From: Arcobacteraceae bacterium
GTDB lineage: Bacteria > Campylobacterota > Campylobacteria > Campylobacterales > Arcobacteraceae
Length of the DNA: 64,000 nucleotides
Direction: 5' to 3'
Assembly: GCA_963662945.1 (NCBI GenBank)
Contig: OY759974.1
Coordinates: 2,112,001-2,176,000, forward strand
Under the pieces are notes generated by a model, which searched no databases, had not been told where the DNA came from, and saw only the letters and a list, made by a program, of their open reading frames with translations. This document shows, piece after piece, positions 246-50,804 of this stretch. Both the position numbers and the translations under genes were made by a program. Each line of letters begins with the position of its first letter. Positions within the stretch are counted from its first letter, which is position 1.

Positions 246-1961
246 TTAATCTTTACTATAATGTTTGTGAAGTTCTCTAATTGTTTCATAATCATCTTTT
301 CTAAAGAATGTAAGAATATCAAAAACCTCTTCTCTTGTTCGTCCAAGATTTAGTAGTGTTTCAGCAGCAAGTCTTAAACTACCTTCGGCAGCTTCTGGCA
401 TTGCCCATGTTGCGCCATGTTTTAATAATGCATCACGTGTTTCCATATCTCGTGTTCTTGAAAGAACTTTTAAAATAGGATATTGTGCTCTTATGTGTGA
501 GATTATTTTTGAAGATGTATGGTGATTATCAACTGTTATAATAACTGCTTCAACTCTCTCAAGACCTATTTTATTTAAAAATTCTAGTTCACTAAGTTCA
601 CCATAGTATACAGCTCTTCCCTCTTTTTGTCCTAGTTCTACTCTTTTAGAGTCTATATCAAAAGCAATATAGGGAACACCAGCATATTCTAACATTGTAG
701 CAACTAATCTACCTACTCGCCCATATCCAGCAATGACAACACCTTTCCATAACTCTTCTGGTACATAGGCAGACTCTATTTTGATAGGTTCATTATTTAA
801 TTTAAGAGCAAGTTTATCTCCAATATTTACTATCATTGGTGTAAGAAGCATACTAAAAGAGATTATTGTTACAGCAGCAATAAAAAGTTCATCACTAATT
901 ACACCTAATGCTTTAGCAGAACCAAAAAGAACAAATCCAAATTCTCCACTTTGTGACAAAAGAAATGAAACGGAAGCAGCTGTTGATCTACTATATCCCA
1001 TATATAACATTAAAACAAATAAAGCAATAATTTTAATCCCCATAATTACAAAAAGATGTTGAATTAAAATTAAAGGGTCATTCATCATTGCATGGATATC
1101 GATAGACATCCCAACTGCAATAAAGAACATAGTCATTAAGAGTCCTTTATAAGGTTCGACATGGGCTTGTATTTGATAATGATATTTAGAACTTGATAGC
1201 ATCATTCCCATAATAAAAGCTCCCAATGCCATTGAAAGACCAGCATGTTCCATTGCCCATGCTGCAAAAATTACCGCAAGCATAACAGAAAAGAAAAAAG
1301 CATCACGATTTTGATTTCTTGCTAAATAATCTAAAATTTTTGGAATGATATATTTCCCCAATGCTATCAAAGTTATAATTGAACCAAGTGCAATAAAAAT
1401 TTGTTGCCATAAAGAATGTCCTTGAGAAAGATCTCCCCCTTTGGCCAAAATTGGAACTAAAGCTAGTAATGGAACAACAGCGAGATCTTGCATTAATAAA
1501 ATTGCAAAGCCACTTTTCCCTACAGGGGAATATAATTGTCCTTTCTCTTGTAAAATTTGCATTACAAATGCAGTAGATGAAAGTGCGAATGTAAGACCTA
1601 CTAATAATGCAACTTGCCAAGACTGAGAATAAAAAGTACTATAGATAAAAATTAAAATACCAGATAGAATAATTTGTGCACTTCCTAAACCAAATACTTC
1701 TTTTCTCATATCCCAAAGTTTTTTAGGTTGCATCTCTAAGCCTATGACAAAGAGTAATAAAACTACACCAAATTCAGTAATATGTCGTACCGCATCAACT
1801 TTATTTGTTAAAATTGGACCAGGAGAATAGGGACCTACAATTACACCAGCAATTAAAAGTCCTAATATACTACCCAGACCAAGTTTTTTAGAAAGTGCAA
1901 CAAGTAAAGTAGCAACAGCAAATAGATAGAATGTTAAGTTTAATAATTCAGAATTATCCAA
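246..1961 (-). CDS. KefB/KefC-like K+/H+ antiporter (CPA2) with C-terminal TrkA-N/KTN domain
   Basis: EFGVVLLLFVIGLE, ALSSTA, ILLMQDLAVVP, SQSGEFGFV; KTN motif IAGYGRVG; TTG start. Confidence 0.9.
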   Translation of the reverse strand: MDNSELLNLTFYLFAVATLLVALSKKLGLGSILGLLIAGVIVGPYSPGPILTNKVDAVRHITEFGVVLLLFVIGLEMQPKKLWDMRKEVFGLGSAQIILSGILIFIYSTFYSQSWQVALLVGLTFALSSTAFVMQILQEKGQLYSPVGKSGFAILLMQDLAVVPLLALVPILAKGGDLSQGHSLWQQIFIALGSIITLIALGKYIIPKILDYLARNQNRDAFFFSVMLAVIFAAWAMEHAGLSMALGAFIMGMMLSSSKYHYQIQAHVEPYKGLLMTMFFIAVGMSIDIHAMMNDPLILIQHLFVIMGIKIIALFVLMLYMGYSRSTAASVSFLLSQSGEFGFVLFGSAKALGVISDELFIAAVTIISFSMLLTPMIVNIGDKLALKLNNEPIKIESAYVPEELWKGVVIAGYGRVGRLVATMLEYAGVPYIAFDIDSKRVELGQKEGRAVYYGELSELEFLNKIGLERVEAVIITVDNHHTSSKIISHIRAQYPILKVLSRTRDMETRDALLKHGATWAMPEAAEGSLRLAAETLLNLGRTREEVFDILTFFRKDDYETIRELHKHYSKD

Positions 1962-9561: not shown

Positions 9562-10266
9562 TTATGACATAATCTCTTCAATAGTGATGTAATCACCAAC
9601 TCTACCAGTCATTTGCTCTACATCTGTATTTACTGGAAGTGTTTTTTTACCTGGAACCCATCCTGCTGGACAAACTTCACCTGTTTTTTCTGCATGTTGC
9701 CAAGCTCTTACTTGTCTTAAAAATTCATGCACATTTCTTCCTACCATTGGAGCTTGTACCTCTTGGGCTACTACAGTTCCCTCAGGATTGATTAAAAATC
9801 TTCCTCTAAGTGCAATACCTTCCTCTTCAATCATAACACCAAAAGCTCGACTAACTGCACCTGTAGTATCTGCACCAATTGTAAGTTGTAATCCTTTTAA
9901 TAATGGCTCAGTTTCAACAAATCTTTTATGTGAAAATTTTGTATCTGTTGATACTGCTAATATCTCAACGCCAAGTTCTTGAAACTCATCATATTTTGCA
10001 TTCATTGCAGCTATTTCTGTTGGACAAACAAATGTAAAATCTGCTGGATAAAAACACACTACTGACCATTTACCTTTGTAATCTTCACTACTTACTGTTT
10101 GGTAGTGACCTGTTTTTGCGTTATACGCATCCATTTTAAACTCTGGAGCTTTTCTTAATACTAATGATGAACTCATATTTTTTTCCTTTTTTTCTATTAT
10201 TTTATTTTCGTCTGTAGAGACAACTTGTTTTTCTTCTATTGGTTTTGCACCTGTATCGCAAGCCAT
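9562..10266 (-). CDS. 2-Cys peroxiredoxin (AhpC/PrxU-like) with N-terminal extension
   Basis: FYPADFTFVCPTE peroxidatic motif; GEVCPAGW resolving motif. Confidence 0.9.
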   Translation of the reverse strand: MACDTGAKPIEEKQVVSTDENKIIEKKEKNMSSSLVLRKAPEFKMDAYNAKTGHYQTVSSEDYKGKWSVVCFYPADFTFVCPTEIAAMNAKYDEFQELGVEILAVSTDTKFSHKRFVETEPLLKGLQLTIGADTTGAVSRAFGVMIEEEGIALRGRFLINPEGTVVAQEVQAPMVGRNVHEFLRQVRAWQHAEKTGEVCPAGWVPGKKTLPVNTDVEQMTGRVGDYITIEEIMS

Positions 10267-10403: not shown

Positions 10404-11792
10404 TTATATGAAAAGTAAAAATAATCCCAAGCCAAGGATAAACACTAAACTTCCATACTCAAATACTTTTTTTAAAGTATTGTTTTGTGAGGATTTTTTC
10501 CTTACATTGATACTTAGGTAGGCAGTGATAAAGATGATTAAACTCATCCCTAAGCTCATAAATATAGCACTTAAAAATCCTACATAATAAATTCCAAGTC
10601 CAAAAGTAAAGATAAAGATAGTTACAGTTCCAGGGCAGGGTACAATTCCTGCAGCTAGTATCACCCCTAAATCTTCACTTTTTGTGTTACATCCGCTACA
10701 TCCACAGCTTGGTGCATTTGGATTGTGTATAGAAAAAGTAAGTTTATTTGTAGTTTTATATTTTTTATAGATAAGGTATAAAGCTATAGATATGATAATA
10801 ACAGCACTTAATTTTGTAGCCACATATTCAATATCTGTTATAAAGCTTATAAATAATAAATTAAGAACAAAATATATAAACATAGTAAGTAAAAATGCAC
10901 TAAAAGTATGAACAACCCCTATAAGTAATGAGATATTAAAAGCTTTTACAACAGAGCGATTTTCACTTAAAAAGTAGCTAGAAACTAAACTTTTTCCATG
11001 ACCAGGACCAAGGGCATGCAAAATTCCATAAGCAAAAGAGAAGAATAATAGCCACAAATAAGAGCTAATAGAATTTGTTTGTTTTATATCAGTTAAAAGT
11101 GTTTGAATTTTTTCTTTATAAAGTTTTAATTGCTGTGATAATTCTTGAAACAAATCTGTTTTATGTTTGGATTCTATAACAGTTGTTATATTTTTTTCAG
11201 GAGTCTTTTTTAGTACAATTGATGGGTCATTAAACTCAATTATTGCATAATGTTCAAAAGGTTTAATAATATATTTACCCTGATAGTTTTCTAAAATTAT
11301 ATCTTCTAATTTAAAGTTAAAATTATTTTGCTCATCTAAAAAAGAAATTCTTAATATATGGTTGTATTGAGGCATAAAGTCTGCATCAAAACTAAAAGAA
11401 TAATACATAAAACCATTTTCAAATAACATTTTTTTTGAGTTAGGTTTGATATTTAAAGGTTTTTTTGAGATAAAATGTTTTTGTGCATAGGTTATATGTG
11501 TAAGATAATTAAAATTATTGAGATAATCTTCTAAAGCTTTTGTAATAGCTTCTTGTTCTTCTTTATCAAATTTTCCATTTGAATTTTGATCATATTGCGT
11601 AAGACTTGAAACAAATTTTTTATCAAATTTCCATTGAACTTCAAAGTGTGTTGTGGTTGGAAGTGTGGATACTTTTGTTGTAACAGTTACAACTGGTATA
11701 TCCATTTGACATAAAGCACAACCAAAACTGGCTGTGCTTGTAAAAAGTGTTAATAAAATATAGAATAAAATTTTATTTATTGGCAATTGCAT
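10404..11792 (-). CDS. Fusion of a DUF1007-like periplasmic domain and an RcnA/NiCoT-like metal transporter (ZevA-ZevB-like)
   Basis: Signal peptide, WKFD...D..GKFD in the N-terminal part; membrane part YGILHALGPGHGK, HTFSA, GIVPCPG. Confidence 0.75.
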   Translation of the reverse strand: MQLPINKILFYILLTLFTSTASFGCALCQMDIPVVTVTTKVSTLPTTTHFEVQWKFDKKFVSSLTQYDQNSNGKFDKEEQEAITKALEDYLNNFNYLTHITYAQKHFISKKPLNIKPNSKKMLFENGFMYYSFSFDADFMPQYNHILRISFLDEQNNFNFKLEDIILENYQGKYIIKPFEHYAIIEFNDPSIVLKKTPEKNITTVIESKHKTDLFQELSQQLKLYKEKIQTLLTDIKQTNSISSYLWLLFFSFAYGILHALGPGHGKSLVSSYFLSENRSVVKAFNISLLIGVVHTFSAFLLTMFIYFVLNLLFISFITDIEYVATKLSAVIIISIALYLIYKKYKTTNKLTFSIHNPNAPSCGCSGCNTKSEDLGVILAAGIVPCPGTVTIFIFTFGLGIYYVGFLSAIFMSLGMSLIIFITAYLSINVRKKSSQNNTLKKVFEYGSLVFILGLGLFLLFI

Positions 11793-16668: not shown

Positions 16669-18069
16669 CTATAATTCCTTTATATAGTTTATAATTTTAT
16701 TTCGTTGATTTTCGGTTAAGCTCATAAAATCATTTTTGATTTGTAAAGCTTCGCCTGCGTGCCATAAAATAGCTTCTTCAATAGTTTTTGCTCTTCCATC
16801 ATGTAAAAATTCAGGTTCTTTCCCTAAAGTTAATTTATGTTTTCCTATTCCCCAAAGTGGAGCAGTTCTCCATTCATTTTTATTTGCTTTGAACTCCACT
16901 CTTCCATCACTTAAACCTTCACCCATATCGTGCAGTAACATATCTGTAAATGGTTTTATCACATAGCCAGAGTTCAGAGTATACGAAGGGATATGGCACT
17001 TTACACAACCAATTTGTGCAAAAAGTTTTTCCCCTTCAAGTTCTGTTATAGTTGATTTTGGAATTTTTAAATTTTTTAAATAAAATGCAATAGATTCCAG
17101 TCTATGCATTGGCAAATCAAAAGGTGTGCCAGCTCTTAATGTATCTCCTTTTGGAGCTTTGAGACAATTTTCTTGGGAGCTTGTACAGTTCTCATTTGGG
17201 AATAGGGGAGTTGTGAGACTCATATCATTATGGGCTGCTGCTGCACTTTGGTGTATCACTGATGGTGCTGAAGCTTTATAAGTATATCTTCCAACTTTAA
17301 AAGTTTTTTCAGATGGACTATAGACAATATTTGCTTTTCCTGATATTCCATCATTATTTTTATCTTCTATATCTTCATTTTTTAAGATTTGTTCATCGCT
17401 TAATTGTTCTAAAAGTCCCAAACCTAGAAGGGCAGGGGCAAGTCTAGAAGATAGTGAAACTTTTTCATTCATCTTTCCATAGTTTAAATGGGTAAGTTGA
17501 TTTTCAACTCCATGAAATGGTTGTTTTAGTGTAACTATTTTTCCATCTGGATAGGTTACTTTGATATCTTTATATGCTATAAGTGGCTTTGCTTCAAAAG
17601 GTACATCTTGTGAACCATTGATACTTATTTGTGAACCATAGGTTTCTTCACTTACAAAACCATTGTATTTGAGCATATCTTGATGTTGTTTTGAACCATT
17701 TGAGGGAATTGAAACTCTTAATATATATGATCTTGATATAGAACCATTTTCATTATAAAGTGAGCCTTTGCCATTTTTTGGATGACAGCTAATACAGGTA
17801 TTTGCATTGAAAAGTGGACCTAGTCCATCTCTTGCAGTTGTAGCACTTGGTGCTTCTACCCAAGGGATTCTATAAAAACTTTTTCCTTCTATAAACTTAT
17901 CTATTTGTTCATCATTTAAACCTGAGACTTGTTGTGAAAAAATATTTTTAGAAGAGTTTGTTGTTGTATAAATCTTATCAAGTTTTTCTTGTATTGTTTC
18001 ATTTGATAGAAGTGCAGTGGTAAAAACCACTGTACTTAAAAGAAAACTATATTTTAGTTTCTTCTGCAT
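16669..18069 (-). CDS. Di-haem oxidoreductase (DHOR/DUF1111 family)
   Basis: DGLGPLFNANTCISCH, CVKCH, TDMLLHDMG, WRTAPLWG, LHDGRA...AILWHAGE. Confidence 0.9.
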   Translation of the reverse strand: MQKKLKYSFLLSTVVFTTALLSNETIQEKLDKIYTTTNSSKNIFSQQVSGLNDEQIDKFIEGKSFYRIPWVEAPSATTARDGLGPLFNANTCISCHPKNGKGSLYNENGSISRSYILRVSIPSNGSKQHQDMLKYNGFVSEETYGSQISINGSQDVPFEAKPLIAYKDIKVTYPDGKIVTLKQPFHGVENQLTHLNYGKMNEKVSLSSRLAPALLGLGLLEQLSDEQILKNEDIEDKNNDGISGKANIVYSPSEKTFKVGRYTYKASAPSVIHQSAAAAHNDMSLTTPLFPNENCTSSQENCLKAPKGDTLRAGTPFDLPMHRLESIAFYLKNLKIPKSTITELEGEKLFAQIGCVKCHIPSYTLNSGYVIKPFTDMLLHDMGEGLSDGRVEFKANKNEWRTAPLWGIGKHKLTLGKEPEFLHDGRAKTIEEAILWHAGEALQIKNDFMSLTENQRNKIINYIKEL

Positions 18070-19384
18070 CTGTTACATCTTCAACTGATAATTTGATACC
18101 ATTTGCACCAGCAATATCTACCATTTTATCACCTAATTTTCGTAATTCATTTTTTAGTTTTACGATTACTTTAGCTTGTGGATCAGTTGGATGAATCTGA
18201 TAATCAAAATGTCTACTTGTTTGAGCAATTGCATTGATTGATTCAATTTTAGATTCAATTTGACCTAAAAGTTCTAGTATCTCTTTTTTAGCTTCAACAG
18301 ACAAAGCATCTATAGGAGCTGTTCCATAATCTACACCTTTATATGTTCCCATAAGAAGATTTTTAAATCCTTGATAGTTTGTAGCAATATCTCTATGAGT
18401 ATTATCACTAAAACAACTATGCTCATCCTCTTCACTAGGAGTTAAAACAGCAACTGCAATTCTTTCATTTGCTAGTTCTGATTTTATAAATACACCCATC
18501 CCTGCAAAAATTTGTTTTAAGGCTTCATTTTGAGCAATGTTTTTTGAACTATCACTATTTATTCCTAATATTGCAGCTCTATAGTTTGTCATATCTCCTG
18601 TTTTCCAAGCATCTGAAATGATTGTTAAATCATCAACAATTTTTTGAGCACTAGCTTTTAGGTAAGCTAATCTTCTCTGTGCATTTTTATCTGTAGTAAA
18701 GTCACTTAAAGGTCGCTGACCTGCAGTTAAAGCACCTTTTGTAATTGAATCTTTTACAAAGTTACTATAATCTTGATCTTGTCCCCAAAGTAAAAATTCA
18801 ACAGCATGGTATCCTGTAGCTACATTTGCTTCCCCACCATTTTCATTAAGTGCTGTTATTGCATCAACTGTGATATTTGTCACATCTACACTTGAACTTC
18901 CTTCACCACCTGGGTTGAATTTACCTTTTGTATCTATGATATTTCCTGATGTTTTAGCACCTTTTGCATCAATAGTATAATCAATCATATTTTCATCCAA
19001 TGGCCAAGCATTGATTTGTCCCTCTAGTGCACCATAAGTTTCTGCTACCCAACCTTCTTCTGCATCAATAGGACCATTAGAAAGTCTAAAAGCTTCAGTT
19101 AAACCATAAGATTCTCTAGAGATTAACCAAGCGGCTTTTGCTTCCACTAAAGTATCTTCTGTTGGATTTGCTGTGAATTTATCAATAGCTATTTGTAAAA
19201 GTTTTGCATCATTTAAGGCATCTTTATAGTTGTCTTTAGCAATATTTGCATAAGTTTCTAACAGTGATGGTTCATTTTGTATTTTGGCAGTTGATGGATT
19301 ATTTCCAGTACAACCACTTAAAGCTAAAATAGCAGCAAAGCTTAGTCCTGTAATCATTGTTTTTGTTGTTTTTATCATCATCAT
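18047..19384 (-). CDS. Imelysin / IrpA-like iron-regulated lipoprotein
   Basis: Lipobox LSGC, INAWPLDE, ATGYHAVEFLLWGQD (GxHxxE), EDEHSCFSDNT; three tandem ATGs make the exact start uncertain. Confidence 0.9.
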   Translation of the reverse strand: MMMIKTTKTMITGLSFAAILALSGCTGNNPSTAKIQNEPSLLETYANIAKDNYKDALNDAKLLQIAIDKFTANPTEDTLVEAKAAWLISRESYGLTEAFRLSNGPIDAEEGWVAETYGALEGQINAWPLDENMIDYTIDAKGAKTSGNIIDTKGKFNPGGEGSSSVDVTNITVDAITALNENGGEANVATGYHAVEFLLWGQDQDYSNFVKDSITKGALTAGQRPLSDFTTDKNAQRRLAYLKASAQKIVDDLTIISDAWKTGDMTNYRAAILGINSDSSKNIAQNEALKQIFAGMGVFIKSELANERIAVAVLTPSEEDEHSCFSDNTHRDIATNYQGFKNLLMGTYKGVDYGTAPIDALSVEAKKEILELLGQIESKIESINAIAQTSRHFDYQIHPTDPQAKVIVKLKNELRKLGDKMVDIAGANGIKLSVEDVTDAEETKI

Positions 19385-19389
19385 TCCTT

Positions 19390-19884
19390 TTATTTTGAGA
19401 CTAAAAAGCCAATTTCTTTATCAATTATATGTAAACCGCGACCCTCTAAACCTACAATATCCATCTTGTCAAGGATACCTTTGAATAGCGCTTCTTCTTC
19501 ATGTTGTTCACTTAAATACCATTGAAGAAAGTTAAATGTTGCATAATCTTTTTGTTCTAAAGTTAATTCAACTAATTCATTGATTCTACTTGTAATAAAA
19601 AGTTCATGTTTATATGTTTTTTCAAATACATCTTTAATATCTTTAAAAACAGTATCAGGAGCATCAATACCTGAAATAACCGCTTGTGAACCTGTTTCGT
19701 TGATATAATTGAATAACTTATACATATGTCCTAATTCTTCTTTTGAATGATCTGCTAGAAATTTTGCAGCACCATCTAGACCTTGTGCTTTACACCAAGA
19801 TGACATCGAAAGATATAAGTTTGAAGAGAAATGCTCCAAATTTATTTGATGATTTAATTTATCTAATACCTCTTTTTTTAACAT
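19390..19884 (-). CDS. ftnA: Non-haem ferritin
   Basis: QINLEHFSSNLYLSM, EELGH, HELFIT, FLQWYLSEQHEEE ferroxidase residues. Confidence 0.93.
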   Translation of the reverse strand: MLKKEVLDKLNHQINLEHFSSNLYLSMSSWCKAQGLDGAAKFLADHSKEELGHMYKLFNYINETGSQAVISGIDAPDTVFKDIKDVFEKTYKHELFITSRINELVELTLEQKDYATFNFLQWYLSEQHEEEALFKGILDKMDIVGLEGRGLHIIDKEIGFLVSK

Positions 19885-19912
19885 TGGATTTTCCTTTATT
19901 TATGTTATAATA

Positions 19913-19979
19913 AAGTTCAATATTTTATTGAACACCACAAGTTAAAGATGTGTAGTTTGGCGGCTTACATCTTTAACTT
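19913..19979. repeat. Two-hairpin element, copy A (upstream of ferritin)
   Basis: GTTCAATA-TTT-TATTGAAC, then a 13-bp stem with loop GTAGTTTGGCGGCTT; homologous to 21137..21200. Confidence 0.85.
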
Positions 19980-19987
19980 TTTTTATT

Positions 19988-21097
19988 TTAGAAACTGTAA
20001 ACTAACTGTGCACTATAATAAGTACTATCATCGTTTGCAACATGAGCATCAATATCAGCAAATATTAAACTCACTGTAAAATTTTTATATAATTCTTTAT
20101 CAATTGTAAAGTTAAACTCTTTTTCTGTTTCGTCTACAGTTCCATTTTTATAGTCTGTTGAACCATAAATTGCTCCAAAATCAAATCCTGCTACACTATA
20201 GTTTGCACCTATATAGTAAGTATCAGCATCAGTTCCATAAACTTGATTTCCACTATCTAATGGATTGATATTTTCACCTAAAGCCTCAAGAGTACCAATT
20301 CCTCCATCTTTATCTGTAGTGATATATCCTGCATTGACACCAAATGTATCGTTTGCGTAACTTAAATCTACAGCAGCAATATTACCATCTACAGTTCCTG
20401 CAACATCTTCATCTGTTGTAGTGTATTTAGCAATAGCACCAAAACCATTCATATTAAAATCAATTTTCCCACCAACTGCACTAAATGTATCTTTAGCATC
20501 CATATAGTATGCACCTAATGCTAAATTATCATTGATTGTATAAGTTGCATCTATTACATAAGCACCATCACCATTTGTACCAATATCAGAAAACTTGTAA
20601 AGTGCTTCATCATTTGCACTTGCACTTACTTTATCAGTATAACCTACGATTAAAGTAGTATTTGGAATTGCAGTTATAACTCCAACAGCAGCTTCATGGT
20701 AGTCCGATATCCATTCTAAATCAATCTCTTGTCTACCAAGTGTAAGTGAAAACACATCATTTGCATATCCTACATTTGCAATATTTAACAATGCTTTTGG
20801 AACATCTCTACCATCTTCATAATCACCATTTTCTTTTTCATCAAGTTCAGTACTTGACATAAATCCAACAGCTGCTTTAAATCCATTAAGTGTATCTGTT
20901 TCATAGTTTATGTTGATATGTCCTAGACTATATCCACTGTCAGGTGTAGTTCCACCATTGTCGTTACTTACAGTATACGCTGAAATTTCTCCACTTGTTT
21001 TTCCATTTTTAAATGCATCTTCTAAAGTATTGCTATCAGCTACTAAATTACTTGTAAGTAATGCTGCTGTTAATATGCTTAAGTTGATTTTTTTCAT
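19988..21097 (-). CDS. Outer-membrane porin (Campylobacterota Opr/MOMP-like)
   Basis: Signal peptide, LEDAFKNGKTSG, LGRQEIDLEW, C-terminal LVYSF; acidic. Confidence 0.85.
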   Translation of the reverse strand: MKKINLSILTAALLTSNLVADSNTLEDAFKNGKTSGEISAYTVSNDNGGTTPDSGYSLGHININYETDTLNGFKAAVGFMSSTELDEKENGDYEDGRDVPKALLNIANVGYANDVFSLTLGRQEIDLEWISDYHEAAVGVITAIPNTTLIVGYTDKVSASANDEALYKFSDIGTNGDGAYVIDATYTINDNLALGAYYMDAKDTFSAVGGKIDFNMNGFGAIAKYTTTDEDVAGTVDGNIAAVDLSYANDTFGVNAGYITTDKDGGIGTLEALGENINPLDSGNQVYGTDADTYYIGANYSVAGFDFGAIYGSTDYKNGTVDETEKEFNFTIDKELYKNFTVSLIFADIDAHVANDDSTYYSAQLVYSF

Positions 21098-21136
21098 TTG
21101 ATTCTCTTTCCTTTTATATCAATTCATCGATTTTGT

Positions 21137-21200
21137 AAGTTCAATATTTTATTGAACGCCATTATTAAAGATATGTAATTTGACGGCTGTATCTTTAATG
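21137..21200. repeat. Two-hairpin element, copy B (upstream of porin)
   Basis: 21 nt identical to copy A, then stem ATTAAAGATAT/GTATCTTTAAT with loop GTAATTTGACGGCT. Confidence 0.85.
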
Positions 21201-21221
21201 TGTGAAATTTCCCTTTTTGAT

Positions 21222-21311
21222 TTAATTAGTAAGGTGTTTATGTCTATAATGAATTCCATTTACCTTTGAATTTTTTTTAAGAAAATTAAAAAACTGTCGT
21301 AAAAAGTTCAT
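21222..21311 (-). CDS. Putative 29-aa leader peptide MNFLRQFFNFLKKNSKVNGIHYRHKHLTN
   Basis: Manual translation; strong SD AAAGGAG 9 nt upstream of ATG; below the ORF-track cutoff. Confidence 0.55.
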   Translation of the reverse strand: MNFLRQFFNFLKKNSKVNGIHYRHKHLTN

Positions 21312-21418
21312 AACAATTAACTCCTTTCTAATTAAATTAAACAATGAAATTATAATTATATTAATATTCATTATCAATATGAAATCTTATTATAAATATT
21401 CTTAATTATTTCTTATAT

Positions 21419-21433
21419 TGATAGTTATTATCA
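21419..21433. promoter_or_regulatory. Fur box between the porin operon and the CDF gene
   Basis: TGATAGTTATTATCA (7-1-7); partial second site TAATATTCATTATCA at 21362-21376. Confidence 0.65.
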
Positions 21434-21549
21434 GTATTATTAAAATATTTATATCAATTTAAGTTAGAAATATATACTATACCTAGAATTTAGACTTATT
21501 GGAATACTAGTAGCATATAGTATTTTATATAATAACAGAGGAAAATATA

Positions 21550-22509
21550 ATGGAAAGTTGTAATTTTGGTTTAAATGAACATAAACCTTTTTTCAAAGAA
21601 GAGATGCACCATCACCATCATCATGAACATCACCATGGAGAACATACACATCATCACGAACATTCACACGATCATAGAGGTACAGACAAAAAAGTATTGA
21701 AAATTGCATTAACTATAACTTTTATTACAATGCTTGCTGAGTTTTTTTATGGTTTTTTATCACATTCTTTAGCACTGATTTCTGATGCTATACATATGTT
21801 TACACACTCATTTGCACTTATTATTTCACTTGTTGCAATTATTATTGCAAGTAAAGAAGCACCATTAGAGAAAACATTTGGATATTATAGAGCAGAAGTT
21901 CTTGCTGCATTTATAAATGGAATCACTATTATACTTTCGATTGTATGGATTTTATATGAAGCAGTTGATAGGTTTTTAAATCCACAAACCATAGATATAA
22001 AAACTGCAATGATTGTGGCTGTCATAGGACTTGTAGTAAATATTATTACAGGTGTTATTTTGATGCAAGGGGATAAAGATAATATCAATCTTAAATCTGC
22101 ATTTGTTCATATGTTAAGTGATGCTTTATCTTCAGTTGCGATTATTATTGGATATATTGTTATATCTTTTACAAATTGGTATTTTATAGATGTTATATTA
22201 GCTGTATTGGTTGCTTTTGTTATTGGAAGATGGGCTGTTGATGTTTTAAAACATTCTATCAATACTTTAATGGAAAGTTCCCCTATAGATATAGAAGAGG
22301 TAAAACAGTATATTGAGCAACATAAAGAGGTAATCGAGTTACACGATGTACATATTTGGGAGATAACACAAGATATGTATAATATGACAGCACATGTGAA
22401 GATTGAAAAAAGTTCTTTAGAAAATTATGAAGAGCTTTTAAAACAGTTAAACAATCAATTACAAGAGAAGTTTAAAATTGTACATACTACCTTTCAGTTT
22501 GAATGGTAG
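21550..22509 (+). CDS. CDF (CzcD/ZitB-like) metal transporter with His-rich N-terminus
   Basis: SLALISDAIHMFTH, TFGYYRAE, SAFVHMLSD, LHDVHIWEI. Confidence 0.92.
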   Translation: MESCNFGLNEHKPFFKEEMHHHHHHEHHHGEHTHHHEHSHDHRGTDKKVLKIALTITFITMLAEFFYGFLSHSLALISDAIHMFTHSFALIISLVAIIIASKEAPLEKTFGYYRAEVLAAFINGITIILSIVWILYEAVDRFLNPQTIDIKTAMIVAVIGLVVNIITGVILMQGDKDNINLKSAFVHMLSDALSSVAIIIGYIVISFTNWYFIDVILAVLVAFVIGRWAVDVLKHSINTLMESSPIDIEEVKQYIEQHKEVIELHDVHIWEITQDMYNMTAHVKIEKSSLENYEELLKQLNNQLQEKFKIVHTTFQFEW

Positions 22510-22519
22510 TATACTATTT

Positions 22520-22984
22520 TTATAATGATTTGTTTTGACAATTTTTACATATGCCATACAACATCATAGTATGGCTTTGAAGTAAAAAACCATTTTCTAT
22601 TGCCACGAGTTCTTGTATTTTTTCAACTTCAGCATCATAAAACTCAACAATTTTTCCACACTCCACACATACCATATGGTCATGATGAGAGGTCAGTGTT
22701 AATTCATAAACTTTACTTTCAAAACCATCTATGGATATCCCTGTGACCGTATTAAGTTCTTCAAGTAAATTTAGAATTCTATAAACAGTTGCAATTCCAA
22801 TATTTATATTATAAGTACTTTTGACTCTTTTTGCCACATCTTCAGCACTAATATGTTTATCACAATCAAATAATATTTTTAATACATATTCTCTTTGATT
22901 TGAATTATTTAATCCTAATGATTTAATAGTTCTTCTAAATTTTAATATATATTCATCATAAGATACTGTTAAATTTTTTTTCAT
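22520..22984 (-). CDS. Fur-family transcriptional regulator (paralogue 1)
   Basis: IGIATVYRIL, HHDHMVCVECG, LYGICKNC; start reassigned to ATG 22984 (SD AAGGT). Confidence 0.9.
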   Translation of the reverse strand: MKKNLTVSYDEYILKFRRTIKSLGLNNSNQREYVLKILFDCDKHISAEDVAKRVKSTYNINIGIATVYRILNLLEELNTVTGISIDGFESKVYELTLTSHHDHMVCVECGKIVEFYDAEVEKIQELVAIENGFLLQSHTMMLYGICKNCQNKSL

Positions 22985-23030
22985 ATTGAAACCTTTAATA
23001 ATCATTCTAAAGTAAGTCAATTATCAATTG

Positions 23031-23098
23031 TGATAATTAATATCAAAATATTAACAGAGAGTAACTTTATTTAATCTTAATACTGATAATAGTTATCA
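23031..23098. promoter_or_regulatory. Two Fur boxes upstream of Fur paralogue 1
   Basis: TGATAATTAATATCA 23031-23045; TGATAATAGTTATCA 23084-23098. Confidence 0.65.
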
Positions 23099-23134: not shown

Positions 23135-25291
23135 TTAAAAAATAACTTTCATATTAAATGTAAAACTTCGTGGAGAACCTACATAATAATTTGTAGTGTC
23201 TTCTAAGATATCCGCACTTCCTACACTTGCAACATATTTTTCATTGAAAATATTTAATAACGATAGTTGTAATGAGAGTTCTTTTGCAAAATTTAATTTC
23301 TTATATGTATATCCATACGACAAATCAAAAGTTACATAATCATCTATTTTTTCTTTATTTTCAATATCAGCATATCTCTCCCCTATGTATCTTCCATTGA
23401 GTGAAAATAGATGATTATCTATTTTGTAAGTTGTTCCTGCTTTTAAAGTGAATTTAGGAGTCTCAGCTACTTCATTTCCTTTGAGGTTATATTGAGTTCC
23501 TGAGTAATCTATATTACTCTTTACTTCACTAAATGTTAGTGCTGGATTGATAAAAAACCATAGATTAGGTGTAGGTTCAATACTGCTTTGTATTTGAGTT
23601 CCGTACACTACTGCTTTACCTATGTTTTGAAGATAATCGATACCAACAGTAGGGTCATATGCCGAACTTAATAAATCATCATGGATATTGTAAAATAAAC
23701 TTAAAGTCGCTTCCCCTTTTTCAAAATATTTTCTGATTCCTACATCAATAAGATCAGAAGTTTCCATATCCCAAGACTCGACAACTGATTGGAGAGTTTT
23801 CCCTTGTGCAAGTAGCTTTGTTCTTAATCCATTTTTGTTAGCAGCATATTGTGCAGCAAAAGAGTATCTATATGGTCTTTGATATCCTTTCCCCCATTTT
23901 GCAAAAAACTCTGTAGCTTCATCAATCTCATATCTAGCCCCAATAGTTGGAAGTAAAAGATTATATTTCATTTCATCTACACTTCCTCCAGGTGCAATTG
24001 TTCCTCGACTAATTGCAATATCATAATCTGATTCTAAATTATTTCCTAGATATGTATCGTTTGCAGCTTCTTTATAGTAAAGATATCGAAGACCAGCTTC
24101 GATTTTTAGTTTCTTGAAATTTTTACTAGCTGAGATATATGGAGAAATAAGATCTGTAGCTCCATGGTTTTTATTAAGCCATTTCCAACCTTGATGAACT
24201 CTAGCAGGTGTAGTAGAAACCTTTCGCACATATTTTTCAAGCCAACTACGTTCTAACCATATACCACTTTCCATGCTAAAACTGTTAAAATCATACTTTG
24301 AATCCAATTGAAATCCAACGCGTTTTGCATCTACTTGTCCATATCCATCCCCTTCATCACTTTTTTCATCATACCCTGAACCGTAAATTTTTAAAAGAGA
24401 ATCTGTTCCAAAAAGTTTTTGTTTAAGTGACAATTGAAGATCATCATAACTTGAATCTGTTTTCCAATAATCATAATAGTCAATTGCATTTGGATTATTA
24501 GATTGGTAATCTTTGTTGTAGTTTGCATTAAGATTTAAAATTTCATTATAGGTAAGTCCCATAAAATTATGTTTTTTTTGTTCATTGTGAGAGTAAAATA
24601 TTTCTATTGGGAAAGTTTCATTACCTGTATTTACCCCAATAGCTAAATTTCTTTTTTCTCCTAAATCACCTTTGCCTTTCCATTTTTTTGCATTTGCTTG
24701 ACTCATTGAGATAAAAGCTTTGGAATAATCATCTATTTTTCCAGTATCAGCCCGTAAAAATAGTTTGTAAAAATCATCTTCACCCATACTTAGTGAAAGT
24801 TCCCCTTGTGTTACATCAGAGGGTCTTTTAAAAATAAGATTTATGAGTCCAGCTTTACTTCCTACACCACTTCCAGAACTTGGATTTAAAGCACCATTAT
24901 AGTGTTCAATAGTTTCTAGATTTTCTAGATCATAAATCCCTTGTCTTGGGCCTATGGGACGAATAGAATAGTTTGGAACCCCCTCTAAACTTATTGCCAT
25001 AAAGTTGTCATCTACTCCACGACTTCTTGCACTAGTTTCACCTAATCCGTATGGATCTTGAGTCTCTACTATAAATCCAGGTTCAATATCAAGGGTTTTA
25101 TAGATAGAAGATTTTGCTTTATTAGAATAAAGATCAATACCATTACTTTTAATCTCATTTTTTTCTCTTAAAGGATTACTATCTTGTGTTGTAGGATTTT
25201 CTGGTTGGTATCCAATAACTGTTATAGGGGCAAGATCTACAGCAAAAAGTGCAGTGCTTGTAAAGATCAATGTAAAAATTTGCTTTTGCAT
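23135..25291 (-). CDS. TonB-dependent receptor
   Basis: Signal peptide, TonB-box-like PITVIG, plug region, C-terminal LLNIFNEKY...GSPRSFTFNMKVIF. Confidence 0.9.
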   Translation of the reverse strand: MQKQIFTLIFTSTALFAVDLAPITVIGYQPENPTTQDSNPLREKNEIKSNGIDLYSNKAKSSIYKTLDIEPGFIVETQDPYGLGETSARSRGVDDNFMAISLEGVPNYSIRPIGPRQGIYDLENLETIEHYNGALNPSSGSGVGSKAGLINLIFKRPSDVTQGELSLSMGEDDFYKLFLRADTGKIDDYSKAFISMSQANAKKWKGKGDLGEKRNLAIGVNTGNETFPIEIFYSHNEQKKHNFMGLTYNEILNLNANYNKDYQSNNPNAIDYYDYWKTDSSYDDLQLSLKQKLFGTDSLLKIYGSGYDEKSDEGDGYGQVDAKRVGFQLDSKYDFNSFSMESGIWLERSWLEKYVRKVSTTPARVHQGWKWLNKNHGATDLISPYISASKNFKKLKIEAGLRYLYYKEAANDTYLGNNLESDYDIAISRGTIAPGGSVDEMKYNLLLPTIGARYEIDEATEFFAKWGKGYQRPYRYSFAAQYAANKNGLRTKLLAQGKTLQSVVESWDMETSDLIDVGIRKYFEKGEATLSLFYNIHDDLLSSAYDPTVGIDYLQNIGKAVVYGTQIQSSIEPTPNLWFFINPALTFSEVKSNIDYSGTQYNLKGNEVAETPKFTLKAGTTYKIDNHLFSLNGRYIGERYADIENKEKIDDYVTFDLSYGYTYKKLNFAKELSLQLSLLNIFNEKYVASVGSADILEDTTNYYVGSPRSFTFNMKVIF

Positions 25292-35099: not shown

Positions 35100-35114
35100 T
35101 GATAATCAATATCA
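35100..35114. promoter_or_regulatory. Fur box
   Basis: TGATAATCAATATCA within AATGATAATCAATATCATT. Confidence 0.75.
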
Positions 35115-46010: not shown

Positions 46011-46025
46011 TGATATTAATTATCA
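46011..46025. promoter_or_regulatory. Fur box next to overlapping divergent -10 elements
   Basis: TGATATTAATTATCA; ATTATAAT at 46003-46010 gives TATAAT on both strands. Confidence 0.7.
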
Positions 46026-49624: not shown

Positions 49625-49697
49625 TAATAATCATTATCAATATGAAAGTATAAAGAGATTTTGCTTAAATGATTCTTAATATTGATAATAATTATCA
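49625..49697. promoter_or_regulatory. Two Fur boxes in the divergent DUF2325/fur promoter
   Basis: TAATAATCATTATCA 49625-49639; TGATAATAATTATCA 49683-49697. Confidence 0.8.
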
Positions 49698-50783: not shown

Positions 50784-50804
50784 ATATGATAATCATTATC
50801 ATAT
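50784..50804. promoter_or_regulatory. Consensus Fur box upstream of fbpABC
   Basis: ATATGATAATCATTATCATAT; second site TGATAATGATTACTA at 50840-50854. Confidence 0.9.

Follow-up and report, generated by a model that had tools for sequence, protein, structure and literature searches.

What does a structured element do that stands twice between neighbouring metal-related genes, and on which DNA strand is it read? The question is raised by a 64,000-nt stretch of the genome of an Arcobacteraceae bacterium (NCBI GenBank assembly GCA_963662945.1, contig OY759974.1, positions 2,112,001 to 2,176,000 of the forward strand), referred to here as the window and numbered from its first letter. A sequence-only reading of the window had described a duplicated element of two hairpins, one copy upstream of a ferritin gene (ftn) and one upstream of a porin gene, and had proposed an unannotated cis-regulatory RNA in the leaders of the two genes. 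The computational analysis reported here recovered both copies, with compensatory changes between them, at 19913-19979 (copy A) and 21137-21200 (copy B), with the sequence as first described. On the most plausible reading, the element, called the module below, represents a candidate new family of small RNAs that is coupled to a bidirectional promoter and occurs in the metal-homeostasis loci of certain Arcobacteraceae. It would encode a short non-coding RNA, about 68 nt in length or some 93 nt where the module has a long form, on the plus strand, opposite to ftn and the porin gene, with transcription initiating at the bidirectional promoter; the odds that this reading is correct are put at about even (a probability of roughly 0.5).

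A duplicated two-hairpin module

The module consists of a short palindromic hairpin (hairpin 1), an unpaired linker and a longer hairpin (hairpin 2); coordinates are given in Table 1. Exact matches to hairpin 1 were found at only two sites in the window on either strand, where 0.18 matches are expected by chance and none of 100 shuffled sequences reached the observed count, so the palindrome is not a chance occurrence. Hairpin 2 differs between copies A and B by two G-C to A-T double changes and by one T-A to T·G change, the latter cell being paired on the plus strand only, and in copy A it carries an apical 4-bp extension that likewise forms only on the plus strand. The two copies are 84% identical over 64 nt. 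Both fold far more stably than shuffled sequences, with z-scores of −6.0 (plus strand) and −5.4 (minus strand) for copy A, and −3.6 and −2.8, respectively, for copy B. A peptide of the form M-[V/A]-FNKILN... can be read across hairpin 1 in some copies; a leader peptide at this position was rejected, as there is no Shine-Dalgarno sequence and the frame is broken in two relatives (G013 and G041).

In the whole 2.50-Mb genome, the full element occurs at two places only (E 2.4e-39 and 8.8e-12), and all other matches are fragments of at most 47 nt with E values of 0.015 or above. The palindrome pattern has two exact sites in the genome and four with two mismatches, with none for the reversed control. 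An Rfam 15 scan of 19000-22000 returned seven matches at E ≤ 10, none overlapping either copy and all far under the gathering score; no family matches the module, and its description as unannotated stands. Two full copies in 2.50 Mb, one or two copies per genome in relatives, and a consistent association with metal-related loci argue against a dispersed repeat of the repetitive extragenic palindromic (REP) type or a miniature inverted-repeat transposable element (MITE). Hairpins of integron attC sites or of IS200/IS605-type elements were also set aside on inspection, since the two hairpins are unlike each other and no recombinase was seen in the flanks read; moreover, the order of the GTT...AAC core in the module is reversed relative to attC.

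Distribution among relatives

A BLAST search of 41 related genomes, followed by scans with two covariance models (R1 and R2), identified 11 copies of the module in nine genomes. Within the genomes scanned, the module is restricted to three Arcobacteraceae genera: it is present in six of 28 genomes of the window's genus, two of five genomes of a second genus and one of 11 genomes of a third. When model R1 was applied across the order, sampled in 151 genomes, it matched the window's own genome and none of the other 150. Two further matches in the family scan were rejected: that in G146 (E 0.044) is a plain terminator-like hairpin, and that in G211 (E 0.09) did not form the two-hairpin model on folding. 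A metagenome scan with the 18-nt palindrome returned at least 120 stretches, 80 of which were taken as loci and searched with model R1. Matches were found in three of the 80 loci listed, and no new variants were among them: one is identical to the G009 copy, and the two others are weak (35.7 bits), lie on GC-rich contigs and look unrelated. Metagenome contig L194 carries the same 18-nt palindrome twice, at 9567-9584 and 11043-11060, inside a longer perfect hairpin (CCCCTTTGG...CCAAAGGGG) followed by identical sequence; this looks like a different, repeated terminator-like element with a chance sequence match.

The association with iron and metal genes, suspected from the two window copies, extends to all 11 copies, each of which lies in a locus with Fur, TonB or DUF4198. 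The gene downstream of the module encodes a porin in six copies (at least two porin families), a ferritin in two, an imelysin in two, and in one a periplasmic protein that weakly matches LTXXQ; 10 of the 11 modules sit a fixed short distance upstream of the gene start. Also in 10 copies, copy B being the exception, the sequence between the start codon and the −10 box, with its Shine-Dalgarno sequence and short leader, is similar despite the non-homologous genes that follow it. At least 10 of the 11 copies lie between genes on the same strand; the exception is G232, where the far-side DUF1007 and NicO-like genes are on the plus strand of the locus, opposite to the porin gene. The upstream stop codon is 8-35 nt from the module in the four cases read (the two window copies, G006 and G009). 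A divergent Fur-family paralogue, 28-29% identical to the window's Fur, is encoded on the same strand upstream of the module in G041 (L044:938-1435), where it is directly adjacent, and in G218 (L252:364-837), where a ferritin gene lies in between. There is no counterpart of this paralogue beside the window copies, and no partner gene is consistent across copies.

Structural conservation and covariation

Evidence for selection on the structure came from an alignment of the 11 copies (A5) fitted to the model. In this alignment, 95.6% of cells are in standard pairs, compared with 33-46% when partners are slid; eight of 19 pairs have changed on both sides; and none of 500 shuffles reached any of five structure measures. 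The two-hairpin structure is under selection, as the sequence-only reading had argued from covariation between the two window copies. Three of the pairs with changes on both sides are in the stem of hairpin 2. In hairpin 1, all five double changes come from a single copy, that of G013, and reflect a symmetric one-base shortening of both arms to GTCAATG/CATTGAC.

The loop of hairpin 1 varies greatly in size. It is 3 nt in six copies, 4 nt over a 9-bp stem in G232 and G218a, and 5-7 nt in G013, depending on whether the closing U-A pair is counted. In G041, G266 and G218b the loop contains a 29-nt insertion (the long form) with small helices of its own, CTCTC...GAGAG and GC...GC (loci L044, L249 and L252, respectively). 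The sharing of the long form by three genera points to an early divergence of the two forms or to transfer from one genus to another. As a result of this variation, the half-sites of hairpin 1 (of the type TTCAATA/TATTGAA) are 3, 5, 9 or 31 bp apart; the arms of hairpin 2 are 14-19 nt apart, with differing fillers. Such tolerance suits a nucleic-acid hairpin, not a dimeric operator. In the linker, only the leading ACAC(C/U) is conserved among copies.

The module as a whole was also compared with neutral sites. Identity to copy A is 0.92 in G006, 0.86 in G009 and 0.85 in G043, as against 0.66, 0.73 and 0.69 at four-fold sites of the adjacent genes, and the margin is small in G013 (0.66 versus 0.59). 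By this sequence measure, the element is conserved beyond neutral sites.

Which strand would carry the RNA

Several features distinguish the two strands. The sequence TGnTATAAT lies 3-4 nt before hairpin 1 on the plus strand in nine of the 11 copies (TATAAT in 10), with variation confined to the n position (T, A or G). There are 383 such sites on both strands of the 2.5-Mb genome, which is 28.9% GC; given this rarity, repeated chance placement across genera is unlikely. The motif fits the −10 box gnTAnaAT, with T at −7, that the consulted text of PMC3847290 gives for Campylobacter jejuni and Helicobacter pylori. The T at −7 places the predicted start near C19918. At the sequence level, the module has a predicted promoter of its own, as expected of a small-RNA gene, with the −10 box at a fixed distance.

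At the other end, hairpin 2 is followed on the plus strand by a T-rich tail. The numbers of T in the 10 nt after hairpin 2 are 9, 4, 6, 8, 8, 8, 5, 9, 7, 6 and 6 in the 11 copies, where composition predicts about 3.6; nine copies thus have 6-9 T per 10 nt, and a simple terminator scan made no call there. On the gene strand, the tail becomes a mere run of A before the hairpin. Hexamers resembling a −10 box just upstream of hairpin 2 in the gene sense were considered as a promoter and rejected, being inconsistent among copies and derived from this A run.

The pairing itself also leans towards the plus strand. Eight cells in A5 are G·U on the plus strand. The GC-rich region that the sequence-only reading had taken for a loop of hairpin 2 folds into a short apical helix on the plus strand only. 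Here G232 and G218a show a swap from G-C to C-G, and eight of 11 copies have U·G at one position; read from the other strand, these become C·A. Predicted folding energy favours the plus strand by 3.9 kcal/mol on average, being lower there for 10 of the 11 copies, and for all seven in a smaller comparison. The proposal of a structured mRNA leader therefore holds for its structural part, while for the leader strand the promoter, the tail, the G·U pairs and the energies all favour the opposite strand. The orientation, which had been left undecided, is tilted to the plus strand without being settled, copy B having no plus-strand promoter.

A proposed bidirectional promoter

The −10 box of the predicted small RNA overlaps a mirror-image box directed at the downstream gene. 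In copy A, the two hexamers occupy 19906-19911 (plus) and 19912-19907 (minus), with the −7T of each base-paired to the −11A of the other, and the predicted start sites, 19918 (plus) and 19900 (minus), are 18 bp apart. Start sites 18 bp apart are the commonest bacterial bidirectional layout, and bidirectional promoters commonly yield non-coding divergent RNAs, according to the consulted text of PMC10268837. The predicted ftn leader is 16 nt long and contains AAGGA. The gene-strand hexamer is TATTAT in eight of 11 copies and CAAAAT in copy B. G009 and G043 combine a perfect plus-strand box with a gene-sense box degraded to AATTAT.

Proposed mechanism

In the proposed mechanism, the extended −10 box TGTTATAAT would start plus-strand transcription near 19918, opposite ftn and porin. 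The RNA would consist of hairpin 1 as a 5'-terminal stem-loop, a short unpaired linker, and hairpin 2 with its U tail, hairpin 2 serving as the intrinsic terminator; relatives with the 29-nt insertion in hairpin 1 would make the RNA of about 93 nt. From a start 18 bp away, the mirror TATTAT would initiate a short-leader mRNA of the downstream gene. Because the upstream genes in the window end 8-22 nt from the module without a recognisable terminator, minus-strand read-through would carry an exact complement of the small RNA. The copy A RNA would also be 84% complementary to copy B in the porin leader. Together, the small RNA and the opposing promoter may limit or process read-through, uncoupling the downstream metal genes from upstream Fur-controlled transcription, such that ftn, porin or imelysin would be driven mainly by the module's own promoter. 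This antisense-insulator mechanism is held with less confidence than the plus-strand RNA itself.

A broader version would make the module a portable cassette of Arcobacteraceae metal loci that combines a symmetric promoter with a ribosome-binding site and a structured antisense RNA. By RNA-RNA pairing and promoter collision, the RNA would shield each gene placed behind it from Fur-driven read-through arriving from upstream, with cross-talk in trans in two-copy genomes. That such a cassette fronts two porin families, ferritin and imelysin for this purpose is, like the cassette itself, a speculative suggestion that we regard as unlikely. Were it true, it would represent a new RNA family and a new wiring of iron storage against iron uptake.

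Points against the proposal and alternative explanations

Several observations weigh against a plus-strand small RNA. The promoter, both ends of the RNA and the RNA itself, with its role, are predicted; of the six sequencing runs found to contain the stretch, none is recorded as RNA. A start at C19918, as predicted, would fall within the 5' arm of hairpin 1 and leave a stem of 5 bp, though all eight pairs are conserved. A and U predominate in the stem of hairpin 2, and three copies (G006, G041 and copy B) have tails poorly suited to termination. Four A·C cells pair on the gene strand only; one is in hairpin 2 (G006), and the other three belong to the two pairs at the base of hairpin 1, which precede the predicted start site. 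The two strands of G006 fold equally well, and part of the energy difference reflects the richness of the plus strand in G and T, a composition that on its own lowers predicted energies. With only 11 copies, related to one another, in an alignment fitted to the model (A5), the covariation counts are biased in favour of the structure. The 11-copy alignment contains no conserved single-stranded seed beyond ACAC(C/U), and a search for linker complements at start codons, quick and uninformative, gave 337 sites, only three of which have a Shine-Dalgarno sequence and an open reading frame (ORF) of at least 50 amino acids, none metal-related by position. Lastly, copy B has neither a plus-strand −10 box nor a T tail, the 9 nt upstream being TCGATTTTG and the tail GTGTGAAATT, with only a weak CAAAAT on the gene strand where the mirror box usually stands. 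That its hairpins are kept by compensatory change without an evident plus-strand promoter fits a role on the gene strand or at the DNA level, or as a target of the copy A RNA. Copy B is either a target or relic, or its structure is kept independently of plus-strand transcription.

The main rival, which is the view of the sequence-only reading, is that the module is a gene-sense intercistronic cis-regulatory RNA in a minus-strand operon of the small ORF described below, porin, ftn and imelysin. We consider it a possible, if rather unlikely, explanation. The module could then be a processing or stability signal, the 3' end of the upstream cistron, an attenuator, or a docking site at which a protein or small RNA sets read-through. 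Same-strand genes flank at least 10 of the 11 copies, and wherever the sequence ahead of the module was read, no recognisable terminator was noticed; minus-strand RNA through the module is therefore almost certain. The hairpins of copy B, the A·C cells and the strong folding of the minus strand in both window copies (z −5.4 and −2.8) are consistent with this explanation, as are the Fur-box-like and strong promoter-like sites upstream of the small ORF. However, a gene-sense RNA loses the eight G·U cells and the apical helix of hairpin 2, and folds with worse energy in 10 of 11 copies. No U tract follows hairpin 2 in this sense; the tract behind hairpin 1 coincides with the promoter, and G009, G043 and copy B have only a poor one. 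The conserved TGnTATAAT with its free n, and the T tail, would also be left unexplained.

Two further explanations dispense with a functional small RNA. The module could act as DNA, as a promoter cassette with protein-binding inverted repeats (for instance, for a metal-responsive repressor covering both mirror promoters) or as a cruciform, the apparently compensatory changes being symmetric evolution of half-sites. Consistent with this idea, stem bases are conserved past the needs of pairing (TTCAATA/TATTGAA in nine of 11 copies; TTAAAGA/TCTTTAA in six of 11, with single-position variants elsewhere), one-sided transitions occur in both strand senses (8 versus 4), hairpin 1 covers the interval between the start site of one promoter and the −35 zone of its mirror partner, and Fur-family genes are near the module in the window, G041 and G218. 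The idea is nonetheless improbable: the half-site spacing of 3, 5, 9 or 31 bp in hairpin 1 is hard to reconcile with a dimeric DNA-binding protein, which would be equally intolerant of hairpin 2 arms 14-19 nt apart, and the Fur paralogue of G041 and G218 shares only 28-29% identity with the window's Fur, with none like it beside the window copies. A scan of the window for Fur boxes (7-1-7 consensus TGATAATnATTATCA, with at most three mismatches) found no Fur-box-like site overlapping 19900-19990 or 21130-21210, the nearest good one being at 21419-21433. On these grounds a Fur-box operator and a palindromic operator of fixed spacing for any dimeric regulator were rejected, which weakens the earlier suggestion that the invariant palindrome could be a DNA operator. 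Less probable still is that the module is a by-product or a relic, either the divergent RNA of a symmetric promoter, with hairpin 2 only halting antisense transcription into the upstream gene, or the remnant of a mobile cassette with promoter and ribosome-binding site. Non-coding divergent RNAs are common at bidirectional promoters in the account of PMC10268837. Also in line with this explanation are the same leader and Shine-Dalgarno sequence before non-homologous genes, the patchy distribution (6/28, 2/5 and 1/11 genomes), the A/G-rich Shine-Dalgarno-like sequence that recurs on both flanks, and window copies that flank a porin gene missing at that place in G006. Against it, hairpin 1 is kept by compensatory change and would be left without a role; the element is conserved above neutral sites; and genomes have only one or two copies, with no terminal inverted repeats or transposase noticed in the flanks read. 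The plus-strand small RNA remains the preferred explanation.

The surrounding locus

The neighbourhood of copies A and B is iron-rich, and Pfam scans and sequence reading of the window place all of the genes flanking the module on the minus strand (Table 1). The start codon of ftn (19884) is 28 nt from copy A, and that of porin (21097) is 39 nt from copy B. On the upstream side, the porin stop codon is 8 nt from copy A and the stop codon of the small ORF is 22 nt from copy B; neither gene has a recognisable terminator of its own before the module.

Table 1. Features of the module and its locus (window coordinates unless another locus is named)
Feature	Position	Strand	Remarks
Copy A of module	19913-19979		
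Hairpin 1, copy A	19915-19933	+	8-bp stem, 3-nt loop, GTTCAATA-TTT-TATTGAAC
Linker, copy A	19934-19940	+	Unpaired ACCACAA
Hairpin 2, copy A	19941-19977	+	11-bp stem GTTAAAGATGT/ACATCTTTAAC, arms 19941-19951 / 19967-19977
Extended −10 box, copy A	19903-19911	+	TGTTATAAT, of proposed small RNA
Mirror −10 box for ftn	19907-19912	−	TATTAT, read from sequence
T-rich tail after copy A hairpin 2	19978-19989	+	TTTTTTTATTTT, enters porin stop codon (19988-19990)
Predicted small RNA	19918-19985	+	About 68 nt, ends placed by −10 box (T at −7) and T tail
Copy B of module	21137-21200		
Hairpin 1, copy B	21139-21157	+	Identical to copy A
Hairpin 2, copy B	21164-21199	+	Stem ATTAAAGATAT/GTATCTTTAAT, arms 21164-21174 / 21189-21199
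Di-haem oxidoreductase gene	16669-18069	−	
Imelysin gene	18047-19384	−	
Ferritin gene (ftn)	19390-19884	−	Downstream of copy A; Pfam Ferritin, E 1.3e-41
Porin gene	19988-21097	−	Between copies B and A; Pfam Porin_4, E 8.3e-09
Small ORF	21222-21311	−	29 amino acids, conserved, basic; just upstream of copy B
Cation-efflux gene	21550-22509	+	
Fur-family gene	22520-23020	−	
TonB-dependent receptor gene	23135-25291		
Small-ORF orthologue	L041:1389-1478		
Small-ORF orthologue	L042, last 30 codons of ATG-called ORF 1323-1475		
Small-ORF orthologue	L043:1600-1692	−	

The product of the small ORF, MNFLRQFFNFLKKNSKVNGIHYRHKHLTN in the window, is very basic and has no Pfam match; the ORF has a strong Shine-Dalgarno sequence. 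Orthologues of 29-30 amino acids are present in G006, G009 and G043, and in G015 (L018), which has no module, a likely relative stands directly before ftn. Ahead of the small ORF are a strong, near-consensus promoter-like site (21377-21349) and a Fur-box-like site with one mismatch (21419-21433). The small ORF could encode a small protein under Fur control or, alternatively, a leader peptide for the ferritin operon.

Comparison with G006 (L041) bears on the history of the two copies. The order in G006 is small ORF, single module, ftn, and that in the window is small ORF, copy B, porin, copy A, ftn; the porin gene is thus missing between small ORF and ftn in G006, and the G006 module and copy B have homologous sequence on their upstream sides. 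It looks as if porin was inserted, or was lost in G006, via recombination between two module copies.

Fur-box-like sites with at most three mismatches number 32 in the window. Besides the site at 21419-21433, eight have no or one mismatch to the consensus and lie at 23031-23098, 35100-35114, 46011-46025, 49625-49697 and 50787-50801; two of these eight are between the Fur gene and the TonB-dependent receptor gene. The window appears rich in iron-regulated promoters.

Comparison with known systems

As a hairpin just upstream of a ferritin gene, the module recalls the iron-responsive element (IRE) of eukaryotes and bacteria, a hairpin bound by aconitase/IRP, a likeness drawn in the sequence-only reading. 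The hallmark of IREs is an apical CAGUGN loop with a bulged C below. This likeness did not survive closer comparison: the CAGUG loop is absent from both strands of all 11 copies, the apical region of the module appears paired rather than an open hexaloop, and the Rfam scan gave no match to IRE_I or IRE_II at E ≤ 10. Small RNAs offer functional analogies. micF is a small-RNA gene divergent from the porin gene ompC; the short RNAs of the RyhB, PrrF and FsrA type finish with a terminator hairpin and regulate iron genes, that for ferritin among them; and RNAbeta, from the fat operon of Vibrio anguillarum, is an antisense RNA in an iron-transport operon that limits read-through. These parallels are of function only: Rfam includes these families, and none of them matches the module at E ≤ 10; unlike those systems, the module has no Fur box at its proposed promoter and no evident Hfq-type seed. 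To our knowledge, the phylum lacks Hfq and any known RyhB.

Regulatory RNAs of the Arcobacteraceae are essentially uncharted. A literature search on Arcobacter small RNAs found no study of such an RNA, and the single genome-wide motif survey found for the genus, that of Arcobacter sp. L from the Breaker laboratory, left most motifs without a name and lists unnamed motifs confined to the genus (PMC6429828). A conserved, covarying RNA candidate at ferritin, porin and imelysin genes would offer an entry into post-transcriptional control of iron and metals in this family. Should no such RNA be made, the module would still stand as a clearly delimited element, conserved and structured, between cistrons of a Fur-linked operon.

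The module also has parallels with symmetric −10 promoters as described in the consulted text of PMC10268837, namely the paired −7T and −11A, predicted start sites 18 bp apart, and the predicted production of mRNA one way and a short non-coding RNA the other. In contrast to incidental divergent transcription, the predicted product of the module is structured, has a putative terminator of its own and covaries across three genera; it would be a natural bidirectional promoter whose "other" product appears under selection.

Among the literature consulted, the closest published analogue is CjNC140 of C. jejuni, as described in the accessible text of PMC10470494. CjNC140 is 73 nt long, has two stem-loops, the second in a Rho-independent terminator, and is encoded immediately upstream of porA. 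It directly activates the mRNA of the p19 iron transporter, occurs only in a narrow clade and is not represented by an Rfam family (PMC10470494). One difference is that CjNC140 acts via a CU-rich loop (CUCCUU) that pairs with a Shine-Dalgarno-like AAGGAG (PMC10470494), whereas the short-form loops of the module are UUU and of the UUUGA type, with no CU-rich single strand. In size, two-hairpin build, porin-adjacent position and link to iron, compared by description and not by sequence, the predicted RNA of the module resembles CjNC140.

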